From Planctomycetota bacterium (GTDB taxonomy: Bacteria > Planctomycetota > SZUA-567 > H5-PLA8): 64,000 nt of DNA. A program made the position numbers and the translations under genes. The notes beneath the pieces are model-generated. The model made no database searches. It was given only the letters and a program-made list of their open reading frames with translations, and was not told where the DNA came from. This document shows, one piece after another, positions 1 to 19,584 of this stretch; within the stretch, counting starts at the first letter, position 1, and each line of letters opens with the position of its first letter. The DNA is taken from the NCBI GenBank assembly GCA_038227875.1, contig JBBRPR010000006.1, positions 1 to 64,000 of the forward strand. The letters are read 5' to 3'.

Positions 1-447
1 AACCTGGCCTTCAACATGCTCAACTCCCACGACGAAAAAACGCACGAACGAGCGATCGTTTTAGGCATGAAGCTGATCGCTCAGCAAGAACGCCAGGCGA
101 GCGCCGAAAAGTGGCGCGAGTTCGTCTACTTCGACAAACTCAAACGCAAAGAAGCCGCCAAGAAGCAACAGGCCGAAACCGAGCTCAAAGAGGAACTCGA
201 AAGCGGCCAAAACCGGACAAAAGCGGACACCACCGCCGAACCGTCCGCCGAAAGCGGCCAAATCCGGACAGAACCGGACACGACCGCTGAATCCAAATCA
301 GAACCCGGCCAAAACCGGACAAATCCGGACACGACCGAGCCGCCCATCGTGGTCAAAGAAGCCAAGTTCACCACCGCCCCAAAGAAACCCAACGTCCCAC
401 CGCCGAACAAAGCCCCCTTCTACGCCGGAGTCGCCGGCCGAAGATAG
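1..447 (+). CDS. Hypothetical protein, 5'-truncated; helical region followed by three 17-aa repeats (GQNRTxxDT) and a Pro-rich tail
   Basis: Frame is open from base 1 to TAG at 445-447; repeats ESGQNRTKADT / ESGQIRTEPDT / EPGQNRTNPDT. Confidence 0.6.
   Translation, partial: NLAFNMLNSHDEKTHERAIVLGMKLIAQQERQASAEKWREFVYFDKLKRKEAAKKQQAETELKEELESGQNRTKADTTAEPSAESGQIRTEPDTTAESKSEPGQNRTNPDTTEPPIVVKEAKFTTAPKKPNVPPPNKAPFYAGVAGRR
203..332 (+). repeat. Three 28-bp units at 51-bp period, each built from 10-bp-periodic (G/C)CGG(A/C)C-AAAA subrepeats
   Basis: Units start at 203, 254 and 305: gcggccaaaaccggacaaaagcggacac, gcggccaaatccggacagaaccggacac, ccggccaaaaccggacaaatccggacac. Confidence 0.9.
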
Positions 448-14936: not shown

Positions 14937-16735
14937 GAGGGATTCGATGCGGAAGAGGAATAGTTGGGGTTGATCCAATGGAGCGAACGTTGCGCGCCGG
15001 CCCAGCGGCTCAGGGCTTCGCGGTCGATCTTGGCGTTGTGCCTGACGTCGACGGGGAACGGCTTGGCGTACCAGAAAATTCCGGCGATGTCCGCCGCGCG
15101 CCGCTCGGTGGCGCTCCAGGCGTCAAGCTCCCAGGAAAGGGCGGCGCAGTCGCTCGTCGTTTTTTCATGAGGCACTTCGACCACGATCACTCCTTCCTGC
15201 GCGCCGGCGCTGCCCAAGCCGGCGAGCGCGGCACGGATTGAGCCTGAATTGGGGCTCTTGTTCATACGCGTTGTTAAAAAATTCTCAAACACCGCTTCGA
15301 TGCAGACGCTGTAGAGCGCCTTGCCGCTGCGCAGAATCACGCGGTGCGCTTTGCGGCCGCAGAACCAGAGCCGGCCGGCGTCATCGAAGTAGCCCATGTC
15401 GCCCATGCGATGCCAGCACGAATAGGACTGAGGGCTGGCGCTGGGAATCGGTTCGTAGATTTTGGCGGCGGCGGTTTGGGCGGGCATGTTGAAGTACTCT
15501 TTGGTGACGACAGGGCCTTTGACCACGATTTCGCCGATGCTCCGCGGCGGGAGGACGAGAGCATCATCCCAGACTTGCTGCGCGGCGGCGGTTTGAGAAC
15601 TGCCGATGATTTTAACGGTGATGCCGGGAATTGGGCGGCCGACGCAGTAGCCGTGGCCTTGTTGCGTCAGCGCCCAGGTTTCCTGCAGGACTTCCGAGCC
15701 GCGAATGCTGGCGACGGGCAGCGCCTCGGTCGCGCCGTAGGGAATGAACGTGTCGCCGTGGGGCAGAATTTTGGCAAACGGCGCGAGCACATCGGCACGG
15801 ACGGGAGCTCCGGCGAGCAGAATACGCTTCACGTTGGGAAATGTGATGCCGCGTTCGGCGCAGTACGGGCCGACGCGTTTCCAGATTGACGGCGAGCCGA
15901 ACGTGTAGGTGATGTTGTGGTCGAGAATCCCGCGCACAATCTTTTCCGGATCGCACTGCGCGGGATGCGACGGGTCCATTTCGGGGATCACGCAGGTCGT
16001 GCCCAGCGCGGCGGCGAACAATCCGAAAAGCGGAAACGCCGGCAGATCGCGTTCGCCGGGTGCGATGCCGTAGAAGTCGCGAATCAGGTCCACCTGCGCT
16101 CCGAACATGCCGTGCTCGTAGAGCACGCCTTTGGGAATGCCCGTGCCGCCGCTGGTGAAGAGGATCGCGGCCGGGGAACACGGTGTTGTTGGCGCAATGG
16201 GGAAGGTTTTGTCGGAACCGAGCATTCTTACGTGGTCGAGTGTCAGACCGCCCCAGCACCAGCGGCGCCCGACGGTGATGTTCAACGCGACGCTGTCGAA
16301 GGCATCGTTGCCGGGGAGAATCCGCAGCGCGTGCGCGAGCGAAATGGCGATCATGTTCCGCGGGCTGCATTGGCGCACGCAGTTCATCACGTTCTTCACG
16401 CCCATTCCCGGATCGATCAACACCGGTACCGCGCCGACTTTGAAGAGCGCAAAGGTCAGCGCGATGAAGTCGAGCCCCGGCTTGACCATCAGCAATGTCC
16501 GGCTGCCGGCGGTAACGCCCACATCGCGCAGGCCCCAGGCGAGGCGGTCGCTTTCCTGATTCAGCTCACGAAATGTCAGCGCCGTGCGGCCGAGCGCGTC
16601 GGCGCGCTGCGGGCAGACGATCGCCGGTCGCTCCGGCGCCTGCGCCGCCATTAAAGGGAGGAATTGAGCGATGTTAAATAAAACGGGGGCAGCGTCCTGA
16701 GTCGGACGCGCATCCGGCAGAGTCGGAGTTCGCAT
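14933..16735 (-). CDS. oleC: Olefin beta-lactone synthetase-like AMP-dependent ligase
   Basis: ALTFALFKVGAVPVLIDPGMG, FTSGGTGIPKGV, PYGATEALP, WHRMGD, FPVDVRHNAKIDR; exact start uncertain. Confidence 0.82.
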   Translation of the reverse strand: MRTPTLPDARPTQDAAPVLFNIAQFLPLMAAQAPERPAIVCPQRADALGRTALTFRELNQESDRLAWGLRDVGVTAGSRTLLMVKPGLDFIALTFALFKVGAVPVLIDPGMGVKNVMNCVRQCSPRNMIAISLAHALRILPGNDAFDSVALNITVGRRWCWGGLTLDHVRMLGSDKTFPIAPTTPCSPAAILFTSGGTGIPKGVLYEHGMFGAQVDLIRDFYGIAPGERDLPAFPLFGLFAAALGTTCVIPEMDPSHPAQCDPEKIVRGILDHNITYTFGSPSIWKRVGPYCAERGITFPNVKRILLAGAPVRADVLAPFAKILPHGDTFIPYGATEALPVASIRGSEVLQETWALTQQGHGYCVGRPIPGITVKIIGSSQTAAAQQVWDDALVLPPRSIGEIVVKGPVVTKEYFNMPAQTAAAKIYEPIPSASPQSYSCWHRMGDMGYFDDAGRLWFCGRKAHRVILRSGKALYSVCIEAVFENFLTTRMNKSPNSGSIRAALAGLGSAGAQEGVIVVEVPHEKTTSDCAALSWELDAWSATERRAADIAGIFWYAKPFPVDVRHNAKIDREALSRWAGAQRSLHWINPNYSSSASNPS

Positions 16736-16833
16736 GCGTCTGACGCTTTTAGTCGAATTTCGGACGTAGTTCAACCGACGTGCGGGGCGGCGTGGTGGAC
16801 CGCGGTTTGCGATTCAAGCGTAGGAGGGCCTGA

Positions 16834-17307
16834 ATGATGAAGATTGCATATATTCCGATACTGCTATTAAGCGTCGCCTGCTGCGCGGTGAATGCTGCGT
16901 CGACTAATCCAGAGGGCGAATTTCAGAATGCTGAACTGACGGGAAAAGTGGACACGACCGGACGCGGCGAATTTCTGGAAGCCAACAACACCCGCTACCA
17001 GATGATGTTCACCGATCCGCGCCAGAAACGCATGGCGCTGGAAATGGACGGCAAGACGGTTCGCGTCGAAGGCCAGATCGATCGCAACGCCAGCCAGAAA
17101 CTCTTCTGGGTGGATCGTTTCACGCGGATCGAGCCGATTGGCGAACACAACTACGCGCGTCCGATTCTCGATGAGGAGCGCGAAATCACCGCGTCCGACG
17201 ACCAGCCCGTGGGTGATTCACACTTCCGCGGCAAGGCCGTGCTCGACATGCCTTTCCAAGGCGCCGAAAACGAGACGATCTACCCGAAGCTACATTTGCG
17301 CTGGTAA
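16834..17307 (+). CDS. Secreted hypothetical protein (possible OB-fold)
   Basis: AGGAGG RBS, signal peptide, 'GKTVRVEG' strand pattern. Confidence 0.7.
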   Translation: MMKIAYIPILLLSVACCAVNAASTNPEGEFQNAELTGKVDTTGRGEFLEANNTRYQMMFTDPRQKRMALEMDGKTVRVEGQIDRNASQKLFWVDRFTRIEPIGEHNYARPILDEEREITASDDQPVGDSHFRGKAVLDMPFQGAENETIYPKLHLRW

Positions 17308-17327
17308 GAAAAAATTATCTCCCAAAT

Positions 17328-17356
17328 TTGAAACCTGTTTGTGGCTGAGGTATATT
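17328..17356 (+). promoter_or_regulatory. sigma70 promoter of the cysS operon leader
   Basis: TTGAAA (17328-17333)-17 bp-TATATT (17351-17356). Confidence 0.7.
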
Positions 17357-17364
17357 TCTCAGCC

Positions 17365-17430
17365 ATGAAGCATTTCATCGCCCACACTATTACCGTCCAA
17401 GCCTCCGCAACTTCGGGTTGTCGTTGTTGA
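17365..17430 (+). CDS. Putative Cys-containing leader peptide MKHFIAHTITVQASATSGCRC
   Basis: ATG 9 nt after the -10 box, ends TGT CGT TGT TGA, 171 nt upstream of cysS; below the ORF-track length cutoff. Confidence 0.6.
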   Translation: MKHFIAHTITVQASATSGCRC

Positions 17431-17601
17431 CGTTCTGCTACGGCAACTCTGCCGAAACCCGTTAAACTTCCGCAGCCCGTGAAGATCCTCTGACCTGCGT
17501 CGCGAATCGCCTTTACAGCCAGGCGTTTCGCGGAACAATAGCGGACTCACTTTTTTCACGGGCTGCCAGCGACTACAAAAAACAGAGCTTAGGAAGCGAT
17601 C

Positions 17602-19137
17602 ATGTTTGTCATTCTCAATTCGCAGTCCCGTAAAAAAGAGGAATTCAAGCCGCTGGATCCGGCGGGCAAGCACGTGAAAATGTACACCTGCGGCCCGACG
17701 GTCTACGACAGCCTGCATCTGGGCCACGCCCGCGCGGCGATCACCCCGGACCTGGTGCGGCGCTATTTGGAATACAAAGGCTTTGAAGTCCGCTACGTCA
17801 CGAACTTCACCGACGTCGACGACAAGATCATCAAGCGCGCGCTGAAGGATGGCGTGCACTGGCAGGACCTGACGCGCCGCTACATCGCGGAATTCCACAG
17901 CCTGATGCTTTCGCTGAACGTCGCGCCCGCGGATGCCTACCCGCGCGCCACCGATCACATCAAGGAGATGATTGAGATCGTGGCTCGCTTGATCGCGTCG
18001 CAGCATGCATACGCGGCGTCCGATGGGGACATCTATTTCGATACGACCAGCTACGAGCGCTACGGCGCTCTCTCGGGGCGCAAGCTGGAGGAAGAAGATT
18101 CGGCCTACTCGGGCCGCGTCTCGACCGATCGCATCGCGGTGAAGAAAAGTCAGGGCGACTTCGTGCTTTGGAAGCTGATCAAGAACGACAAAGGCGAAAT
18201 CGGCGAAGGCGGCGCCGCGGTGCCGCGCTGGCCCTCGCCGTGGGGAGAAGGCCGGCCGGGCTGGCATCTGGAATGCTCGGCGATGTCGCAGAAGTATCTC
18301 GACGTGCCGTTCGACATTCATATGGGCGGCCAGGATTTGCTCTTCCCGCATCACGAAGACGAAAAGGCGCAGACGGAATGCGCGTACCATGATCACCTGG
18401 GTGATAAGGAATCCGTGAACTATTGGGTTCACAACGCGTTCATCACAGTGAAGGCGCGACCGGACGAAGTGGTCGGCAGCGAGAACCTCGATGCGCAGAC
18501 CGGCACGGTCAAAATGTCGAAGAGCCTCGGCAATGTGAAGTGGCTGCGCGAAATGATCTGGCCGGAAGGTCCGTACGATCCGATGGCGTTGCGCATGCTG
18601 ATGCTTTCGAGCCACTACCGTTCGCCGATTATTTTCGAGCCGGCATTGCTCGACGAATCGGCCGCGCGTCTCGAGCGTATCTACAACGCGCTGGAAGCAA
18701 TTGAACGCACCACCGCGCAGATCCCCGATGCGGCGAAGCTGCGCGATACAAACTCGGAGACGATCAAGAAGTTTGTGGTCGCGATGGACGATGACTTCAA
18801 CACCGCCGGCGCGCTGGGCGAAATCTTCGATGCGGTCTCGAAAGCCAACGGGCTGATCGCGGGTTCGAAGTCGGAGGCGGATCTCAAGCAGGCGGCGATG
18901 CTGCGCAATGACATCATCGAGATCCTGAACGTGCTCGGTATCCGGCCACACCGTGCGAAGACTACTTCGGCGGGAGATAGTGAGAAACTGGTGGACTTGC
19001 TGCTGCAGGTCCGGCAGGATGTGCGCGTGGCCAAGCAGTACGCGATTTCCGACAAAATTCGCGATGGCTTAAAGGGTTTGAGTTACGAAGTCGAAGATCT
19101 GCCCGGCGGCAAGTCGCTGGCAAAAAAGAAAACCTAA
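17602..19137 (+). CDS. cysS: Cysteinyl-tRNA synthetase
   Basis: YTCGPTVY, HLGH (HIGH), GRPGWHLECS, FPHHEDE, KMSKSLGN, DDDFNT. Confidence 0.97.
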   Translation: MFVILNSQSRKKEEFKPLDPAGKHVKMYTCGPTVYDSLHLGHARAAITPDLVRRYLEYKGFEVRYVTNFTDVDDKIIKRALKDGVHWQDLTRRYIAEFHSLMLSLNVAPADAYPRATDHIKEMIEIVARLIASQHAYAASDGDIYFDTTSYERYGALSGRKLEEEDSAYSGRVSTDRIAVKKSQGDFVLWKLIKNDKGEIGEGGAAVPRWPSPWGEGRPGWHLECSAMSQKYLDVPFDIHMGGQDLLFPHHEDEKAQTECAYHDHLGDKESVNYWVHNAFITVKARPDEVVGSENLDAQTGTVKMSKSLGNVKWLREMIWPEGPYDPMALRMLMLSSHYRSPIIFEPALLDESAARLERIYNALEAIERTTAQIPDAAKLRDTNSETIKKFVVAMDDDFNTAGALGEIFDAVSKANGLIAGSKSEADLKQAAMLRNDIIEILNVLGIRPHRAKTTSAGDSEKLVDLLLQVRQDVRVAKQYAISDKIRDGLKGLSYEVEDLPGGKSLAKKKT

Positions 19138-19152
19138 AGGAATCTCTGCGCC

Positions 19153-19584
19153 ATGCCCAAAATGCCTCCCCCCAGTGACAAGAGCTTGGAGAAGATCGAC
19201 CGGCTCGTGAAGTCGTACTGCACCAAGTCCGGCACGACGACGCATCCGGAACCGGAAGTGACCAAGGCTGTTGTCGATGGTCTCGCGCAGCACATGGACG
19301 CGCTCGGCCGGCCGCTTTGCCCGTGCCGTTACTACCCGGACAAGACCGAAGAGATCAAGCACCGCACGTGGATCTGCCCGTGCGAGGACATGAACGTCTA
19401 CAAGTATTGCCACTGCCTCCTCTTCGTCACCAAGGAAGGCGTGCCGATCACCGAGTACCTGCCGGAAGACCACGAAGGCCGCAAGACCTACGGACTGGTG
19501 AAGGATCCGACGCCGGACGTCGGCCGCCCACTGCGTGACAAAGCGGCGGAGCGCGAAGTTGAGCGCAAGACGCGTCCGTCGTAA
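19153..19584 (+). CDS. Ferredoxin-thioredoxin reductase catalytic subunit family protein
   Basis: GRPLCPCR, WICPC, CHCLLF motifs. Confidence 0.9.
   Translation: MPKMPPPSDKSLEKIDRLVKSYCTKSGTTTHPEPEVTKAVVDGLAQHMDALGRPLCPCRYYPDKTEEIKHRTWICPCEDMNVYKYCHCLLFVTKEGVPITEYLPEDHEGRKTYGLVKDPTPDVGRPLRDKAAEREVERKTRPS

Follow-up and report, generated by a model that had tools for sequence, protein, structure and literature searches.

The 64-kb window analysed here (64,000 nt of contig JBBRPR010000006.1, assembly GCA_038227875.1) comes from a Planctomycetota bacterium and carries cysS, the gene for cysteinyl-tRNA synthetase (CysRS), behind an intergenic region in which a short upstream open reading frame (uORF) ends in two cysteine codons separated by one arginine codon. 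The host assembly comprises 9.3 Mb with 59.6% G+C, and all coordinates refer to the forward strand of the window. With a probability of roughly 50%, we read this region as a leader in which the ribosome senses the supply of charged tRNA-Cys and thereby sets the expression of cysS. The locus contains the following features.

16834-17307: open reading frame (ORF) of 157 aa, no Pfam match
17328-17601: intergenic region between the 157-aa ORF and cysS
17328..17356, forward strand: sigma-70-type promoter TTGAAA-17-TATATT (TTGAAA 17328-17333, TATATT 17351-17356)
17342..17365, no strand: perfect 8-bp inverted repeat TGGCTGAG-N8-CTCAGCCA, lying across the -10 box and reaching the uORF ATG
17365..17430, forward strand: 21-codon uORF MKHFIAHTITVQASATSGCRC, ATG at 17365, stop TGA at 17428-30
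17419..17427, forward strand: candidate sensor codons TGT-CGT-TGT (Cys-Arg-Cys; TGT 17419-21, CGT 17422-24, TGT 17425-27), directly 5' of the stop
17431..17471, forward strand: untranslated spacer of 41 nt, rich in C (15) and poor in G (7), with a small hairpin at 17441-45/17450-54
17587..17607, forward strand: translation start region of cysS, AGGA 17591-94, 7 nt ahead of ATG 17602
17602..19137, forward strand: cysS, 511 aa (Pfam tRNA-synt_1e, E 1.2e-105; DALR_2, E 8.2e-11)
19153..19584, forward strand: ferredoxin-thioredoxin-reductase beta-like gene, 143 aa (Pfam FeThRed_B, E 2.7e-24)

The promoter agrees with the consensus at 10 of 12 positions and is the sole strong match within 16700-17800; every string quoted for it in an earlier description made from the sequence alone (the sequence-only reading) was found at 17328-17356. 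The uORF starts 8 nt past the -10 box and ends 171 nt ahead of cysS. Its ATG at 17365 and its terminal Cys-Arg-Cys-stop (17419-17430) were likewise read directly from the sequence, with cysteine at positions 19 and 21 of the peptide. The distance between AGGA and the ATG of cysS agrees with the Shine-Dalgarno peak of the genome. The ferredoxin-thioredoxin-reductase beta-like gene, which starts 16 nt past cysS and is probably co-transcribed with it, is followed by a 404-aa ORF without Pfam match.

Codon usage was compared between the uORF and the rest of the genome. TGT is the minor cysteine codon of the host, accounting for 21.7% of the cysteine codons in rough gene calls, and the cysS gene itself has TGC at all three of its cysteine codons. 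A single tRNA-Cys species is encoded, with the anticodon GCA and by two genes. All six cysteine codons in the uORF of the window and in the cysS uORFs of the related genomes G006/G012 and G018, described below, were TGT. Of these two genes, one belongs to a same-strand array of 30 tRNA genes that spans about 6 kb (G000:C25:15917-21842, G000 being the host genome), and the ARAGORN calls for the host genome also included two tRNA-SeC and one tRNA-Pyl.

The rarity of the arrangement was determined by counting CxC-stop and CC-stop motifs on both strands of the 9.3-Mb genome (n = 1792) and applying a promoter-adjacent rule, which asks for an in-frame ATG within 50 codons and for TTGNNN-16..18-TANNNT 4-9 nt before that ATG. 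Two loci among the 1792 motifs satisfied this rule, and the cysS leader was one of them. Counted from the other side, two cysteines in the tail were present in 2 of 100 promoter-adjacent small ORFs (sORFs) ahead of long ORFs in the host genome. The host genome employs leaderless starts: among 2742 ATG genes (rough calls), TANNNT showed a peak exactly 6 nt 5' of the ATG (3.2%, against about 1% at other spacings), and the leaderless signature, with a weak TTGCCA/TTTCCA-like -35 element, was detected in 110 genes starting with ATG or GTG.

Next, the upstream regions of cysS were surveyed in 40 related genomes, in genome contigs and metagenome contigs, and in 27 more genomes of the class and 100 of the phylum; start codons are approximate in the 27-genome and the 100-genome sets. 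The test, set beforehand by the sequence-only reading, was an ATG-initiated sORF of 8-60 codons with at least two cysteines in its last four residues, within 350 nt upstream. Of 28 distinct leaders in the family it selected three, those of the window, G006 and G012. As controls, the reverse strand gave 1 of 28, and in other phyla each strand gave 0 of 122. A comparable frame was found in G018, which belongs to a sister family (TTGACC-18-AATAAT-5-ATG, MAPCCFLPF..., 200 nt ahead of cysS), with the two cysteines adjacent. Demanding a promoter directly ahead of the ATG was more informative. Under a strict promoter rule, five sORFs were retained in the class, two of them with paired cysteines (window, G018). 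A relaxed rule retained eight, four with paired cysteines (window, G006, G012 and G018), and gave 2 of 37 in the controls. The phylum sample added 14 relaxed-rule sORFs (8 forward, 6 reverse), none with paired cysteines. Accepting paired cysteines anywhere in an sORF does not discriminate. Under this looser rule, 6 of 67 class leaders were selected on the forward strand and 3 on the reverse; the corresponding figures were 7 and 2 of 109 in other phyla, and 12 and 8 of 100 in the phylum sample.

The parallel case in G006 and G012 is the strongest support for cysteine sensing. These two are near-identical congeners from another genus of the same family and were counted as one event. In a CysS tree of 29 rows (rows below 45% identity, the truncated ORFs L133 and L134 and duplicate proteins left out; L019 from G017 on a long branch), they were not sisters of the window, and thus the uORF was either gained twice or retained against repeated loss, which counts in favour of the sensor reading. 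Their leader reads TTGAAA-17-TAAAGA, 6 nt, ATG, and the uORF MHTVADP[S/T]LPTVRGIDPRGAASCAC* ends in Ser-Cys-Ala-Cys-stop, with its stop 54 nt before cysS. In the lowest-energy fold, the cysteine codons TCGTGTGCG form a helix with CGCACACGA, which directly precedes the Shine-Dalgarno sequence GAAAGG; the GG and the bases from there to the cysS AUG are taken up by two more helices. Masking a paused ribosome in the calculation raised the unpaired probability beside the Shine-Dalgarno sequence. A GAGG resembling a Shine-Dalgarno sequence lies 4 nt before the uORF ATG, and from its position the uORF could be translated from a longer transcript too.

Between G006 and G012, only 1 of 78 nt of the uORF differs, against 82 of 525 third-codon positions in cysS (Fisher p 1.3e-4). 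There are 3 differences in the 54-nt spacer, 3 in the 43 nt of the promoter and 24 in the 275 nt upstream. The single change in the uORF replaces serine with threonine, and all synonymous sites are frozen. This pattern indicates a constraint that acts at the level of the RNA and not of the peptide. The sole change within the cysteine-codon helix converts a U-A pair into U-G. These data also bear on a functional small peptide whose C-terminal CxC, for example as a metal or redox ligand, would act together with cysS and the thioredoxin-reductase-like gene. The ...S(G)CxC tail common to the window and G006/G012 fits such a peptide, as does the ferredoxin-thioredoxin-reductase-like gene after cysS. 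However, the two peptides are otherwise unrelated, the frozen synonymous sites point to the RNA, and the gene after cysS differs in the genus of G006/G012 (an ORF of 666 aa, against 143 aa in the window), which leaves this explanation hardly credible.

Several results, given in this and later paragraphs, weigh against cysteine sensing in the window. The two cysteine codons are split by arginine and are not consecutive. The uORF was missing in 25 of 28 family leaders, including those with the closest CysS (L133, L134 and L016), as well as in G014, the sister of G006/G012, and in G019, a congener of G018. It was found in none of the 100 further Planctomycetota leaders. In all, about 160 other cysS leaders of the phylum carry no such uORF, and conservation is thus patchy. 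No close relative of the host genome was among those compared, and the uORF of the window is known from one genome; a DNA similarity search of its leader against 190 loci returned only itself. When the window was set aside and G006/G012 were counted once, the enrichment of promoter-adjacent frames was marginal. Within the host genome, no cysteine-rich uORF was found within about 500 nt 5' of cysK (C65), a cysK paralog (C23) or cysE (C14). None of the 11 promoter-adjacent sORFs with an annotated downstream gene showed a cognate-codon pattern; tyrS was among these genes, behind MAFLLA without a Tyr codon, and the others were unrelated or had no Pfam match.

The absence of the uORF from most relatives, and the loss of significance of the enrichment tests under conservative counting, also speak for a chance reading frame in the 5' untranslated region, in which the promoter drives cysS, the frame is untranslated or without effect and the cysteine codons are coincidental. 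In addition, about 100 sORFs ending in paired cysteines (some nested) are present in the non-coding DNA of the host, roughly 1 per 100 leaders, and the case was selected from a very large survey, so that some chance instance is expected. Several non-coding sORFs of the host terminate in ...RPGASCC (C24:47630-47677, C37:54334-54381, C55:12170-12217 and C107:5402-5536), which suggests another dispersed repeat family. Against a chance frame, promoter adjacency and a CxC tail coincide at two loci in 9.3 Mb, one of them ahead of the single gene for which it would be meaningful; the tail recurs ahead of cysS in G006/G012 with strong nucleotide conservation; and outside this phylum, genuine examples of such a design precede cysS. 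On this balance a chance frame is a real possibility that we nevertheless consider somewhat unlikely.

Several other frames and repeats near cysS were examined and set aside. At L215 (G021:C5:139410-139970), a 58-residue ORF with 11 cysteines (...CRCC...CCRCCC...) at about 60-370 lies in a long, low-complexity inverted repeat 5' of cysS; it was judged a repeat artefact and was not counted. The frames in G343 and G146 fall within the ispF-like gene that precedes cysS, in another reading frame. In other Planctomycetota classes, an ispF-like gene (...VNVKAKTNEGLG...) was observed just 5' of cysS at L307, L283, L276, L326 and L233, with a gap of 30-150 nt. By eye, a conserved MCIC... frame at Nitrospirota loci seems to overlap the upstream coding sequence, and the sORF MKNTISSHANMC of G027 was not common to five congeners. 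(AAGAGCC)n heptamers, often with a GGCTCTT run nearby, occupy the last 60 nt or so before cysS in L002, L016, L113, L122, L133 and L134. As a rival regulatory element they were rejected, because the repeat is genome-wide and not specific to cysS: the 16-nt double heptamer unit occurs 109-256 times per genome in G000, G001, G003 and G008 and once in G011, with 0-1 occurrences of the reversed control.

The spacing between promoter and uORF also departs from that of the genome, 8 nt separating the -10 box from the ATG against the sharp leaderless peak at 6 nt, and this too fits a chance frame. Given this spacing, a leader of 0-3 nt ahead of the uORF is the likely form of the cysS transcript, as judged from the promoter position.

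The folding of the leader was then analysed. The sequence-only reading had listed two large stems and a set of mutually exclusive small pairings, which are located as follows, together with the repeat that holds the large stems.

17472..17568, no strand: one copy of a palindromic dispersed repeat of about 98 nt (blastn and two nhmmer rounds)
17472-83/17555-66: 12-bp stem GCAGCCCGTGAA/TTCACGGGCTGC, perfect
17501-12/17521-32: inner stem, one mismatch
17415-24 with 17440-49: alternative pairing of GGGTTGTCGT with ACGGCAACTC, read from the sequence
17441-45/17450-54: small hairpin CGGCA/TGCCG, read from the sequence
17414-19/17456-61: alternative pairing CGGGTT/AACCCG, read from the sequence

The coordinates of both large stems, and the perfect match of the 12-bp stem, were confirmed. 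As a structure belonging to cysS they did not stand: the segment 17472-17568 is a dispersed palindromic repeat resembling repetitive extragenic palindromes or miniature inverted-repeat transposable elements. With nhmmer the repeat was hit 85 times, corresponding to 67 distinct places of the host genome, and its consensus folds at -60.5 kcal/mol. A DNA search returned 37 matches in the host genome and none in 16 other family genomes, and its absence there identifies the copy as a lineage-specific insertion. Further copies lie, for example, at G000:C1:267714-267813 and C7:142158-142256, and also within the tRNA array on contig C25. The copy in the leader folds at -48.1 kcal/mol (z -6.86) and has no U-tail. 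For the leader as a whole the folding energy is -81.7 kcal/mol (z -3.38), a signal that comes from 17472-17568 alone. With the repeat deleted in silico, the z-score of the leader was +0.54; it was +0.21 for the uORF with the spacer and +0.14 for the cysS start region, each relative to shuffled sequences. The strings of the small pairings lie where they had been placed, and their stability is at shuffle level: the region of the small hairpin (17405-17471) gave z -1.33, with 23 of 200 shuffles equally good. Because the large stems belong to a dispersed repeat and the alternative hairpins are at chance, neither is informative on the control of cysS, and the most conspicuous structure of the region, being specific to this genome, says nothing about it. 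The lack of above-chance structure outside the repeat again favours a chance frame.

Pairing between the uORF and the cysS start region was examined separately. In the lowest-energy fold, the uORF segments 17368-73, 17377-81 and 17396-402 pair with the cysS start at 17587-17607, and the cysteine codons (17420-26) pair with 17567-73. The duplex of the cysteine-codon segment with the cysS start region was at chance (p 0.7-0.9). Masking a paused ribosome changed the mean unpaired probability of the Shine-Dalgarno sequence from 0.25 to 0.22-0.30. A second calculation, which used a P-site-based footprint on the leader without the repeat, gave 0.24 for the free leader and 0.50, 0.22 and 0.27 at the three pause sites. 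In these models, masking does not reliably free the ribosome-binding site of cysS in the window. The duplex in G006/G012 was itself of modest significance (p 0.02-0.06 against shuffled or genomic controls).

The same fold bears on a constitutive coupling, in which the uORF is translated and affects cysS by opening the long-range pairing or by shielding the RNA from Rho, with no cysteine sensing. It is with the 5' half of the uORF, and not with its cysteine codons, that the Shine-Dalgarno sequence and AUG of cysS pair. Rho is encoded in the host genome (681.9 bits), and the C-rich, G-poor spacer at 17431-17471, with a GC skew of -0.33 over 17440-17479, is by its composition a possible Rho loading site. 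However, the duplex of the 5' half is marginal (p 0.04 against shuffles, 0.27 against genomic segments), and constitutive coupling leaves the two rare terminal cysteine codons in the window and in G006/G012 unexplained. It is regarded as an improbable account of the locus.

No terminator-like site was found within 16700-17800 (1.6 expected in shuffles). The earlier statement that no canonical terminator lies near the cysS leader is thus upheld, and the result also weighs against cysteine sensing here. Rfam 15 yielded no family for the whole window at the gathering score or for 17200-17700 at E values up to 10, where the sole rows, a greA leader and mir-7927, were at chance level in the two scans; the T-box covariance model had no match in either search.

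The perfect 8-bp inverted repeat over the -10 box could alternatively place control at the level of transcription, with a DNA-binding protein acting on TGGCTGAG-N8-CTCAGCCA and the uORF being incidental. It lies across the -10 box and reaches the ATG, and a repressor site is possible. The 7-bp core GGCTGAG..CTCAGCC is nevertheless unique in the genome, with no second copy and hence no visible regulon; an 8-bp inverted repeat within 300 nt is not very improbable (about 0.1 by our own estimate); and no equivalent repeat is present in G006/G012 or G018. Such transcriptional control is therefore given little credence.

The reading of the region as a sensor of charged tRNA-Cys is plausible and rests mainly on the association with the cognate gene, on the rarity of the arrangement in the genome and on one well-conserved parallel genus. 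Cys-tRNA-responsive control of cysS, as proposed in the sequence-only reading, remains the best reading, and the recurrence of the uORF in relatives supports it. The structural argument made for it has fallen away, its stems being a repeat or at chance.

If the region is such a sensor, the promoter at 17328-17356 would start the cysS mRNA at the AUG at 17365 or 1-3 nt before it, and the 21-codon uORF would be translated as a leaderless or near-leaderless frame. Its last sense codons, UGU-CGU-UGU, would then present two rare cysteine codons to the sole tRNA-Cys(GCA). When Cys-tRNA-Cys is ample, the ribosome would finish and depart, the uORF RNA would pair with 17567-17607, including the Shine-Dalgarno sequence and AUG, and initiation at cysS would be low. 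When Cys-tRNA-Cys is scarce, through little cysteine or little CysRS, the ribosome would pause on the cysteine codons and cover about 17401-17440; together with any ribosomes queued behind it, the paused ribosome would prevent the pairing, and more CysRS would be made, closing a negative feedback loop. An output through Rho in the C-rich spacer is an alternative as open as translational unmasking aided by queued ribosomes. The large hairpin that separates the uORF from cysS arrived later, as a repeat insertion, and has no part in the switch.

Control of this kind has precedents in several forms. The usual control of cysS in Firmicutes is the T-box, for which the leader in the window has no covariance-model match. 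In the pheM-pheST operon of E. coli, a cognate-codon leader precedes an aminoacyl-tRNA synthetase operon and acts through an intrinsic terminator. In tnaC-tnaA, the ribosome is arrested where a short frame ends and there masks the adjacent Rho entry site, and free tryptophan is sensed through the nascent peptide. Neither the terminator of pheM nor the nascent-peptide tryptophan sensing of tnaC is seen in the window.

Cysteine-codon uORFs before cysS are already published outside the Planctomycetota (PMC8632094, PMC4007540). Brewer et al. (2021, RNA Biol) described uORFC-8-2 with 145 examples before cysS in Rhodobacterales, characterised by a conserved AUG and two tandem cysteine codons at about positions 14-15 with UGC dominant. 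A stem and U-run form an intrinsic terminator, and stalling for lack of Cys-tRNA-Cys was proposed to raise CysRS (PMC8632094). The window shares with uORFC-8-2 a two-cysteine uORF directly 5' of cysS on the same strand and the same proposed logic. It differs in that its cysteine codons (UGU-CGU-UGU) stand at the end of the frame and are not in tandem at about 14-15, in lacking a terminator or U-run, in its promoter-adjacent start and in belonging to another phylum.

In Deinococcus deserti, de Groot et al. (2014) reported that the cysS mRNA, its start mapped by differential RNA-seq, begins with a leaderless frame for a 10-residue peptide with two cysteines; transcription attenuation, predicted from sequence, was proposed (PMC4007540). 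The two leaders resemble each other in having the AUG at the 5' end of the transcript, predicted in the window, a short two-cysteine peptide before cysS, and a sequence-based prediction of attenuation. The leader in the window differs in its predicted start, in the absence of a terminator, in its 21 residues and in the terminal position of its cysteine codons. The sequence-only reading had held that no such leader was described in the lineage, and as far as the searches reached, this stands for the phylum but not beyond it, given the Rhodobacterales and Deinococcus deserti examples. A full-text search, with most subscription journals outside its reach, found no description of a cysteine-codon cysS leader in Planctomycetes.

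The polycysteine leaderless sORFs of mycobacteria, termed the 'Cys ribulon' by Canestrari et al. (2020), were demonstrated by mutation (10.1101/834739). There, a ribosome stalled on the cysteine codons blocks the duplex that hides the downstream ribosome-binding site. Those sORFs have at least two consecutive cysteine codons and control operons of cysteine metabolism at six loci; the paper does not mention cysS. As in mycobacteria, the window has its cysteine codons near the 3' end of the sORF, and G006/G012 are a close fit to the translational design. However, the cysteines are split by arginine in the window and by alanine in G006/G012, and Cys-Cys occurs only in G018. In the host, cysS alone carries such a uORF (cysK, the cysK paralog and cysE were examined), and the duplex in the window is not above chance.

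Taken further, at least two or three separate lineages of one class may have gained, or retained against repeated loss, short promoter-adjacent frames with paired rare cysteine codons ahead of cysS, with fast turnover and in a terminator-free form acting by long-range masking of the cysS start or by Rho, and the sensor in the window would have tolerated insertion of a 97-nt mobile hairpin. This wider proposal is tentative, and we consider it rather doubtful as a whole. If it is true, charged-tRNA sensing by the ribosome would be a form of control that is easily gained and lost, in a phylum without a described attenuator. If the leader in the window is real, ribosome-mediated sensing of charged tRNA-Cys at cysS would be extended to the Planctomycetota, whose cis-regulatory RNAs are almost uncharacterised, and a terminator-free, promoter-adjacent form would be added to the two cysS cases already in print. 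How fast such sensors come and go would then be shown by the patchy occurrence of the uORF.

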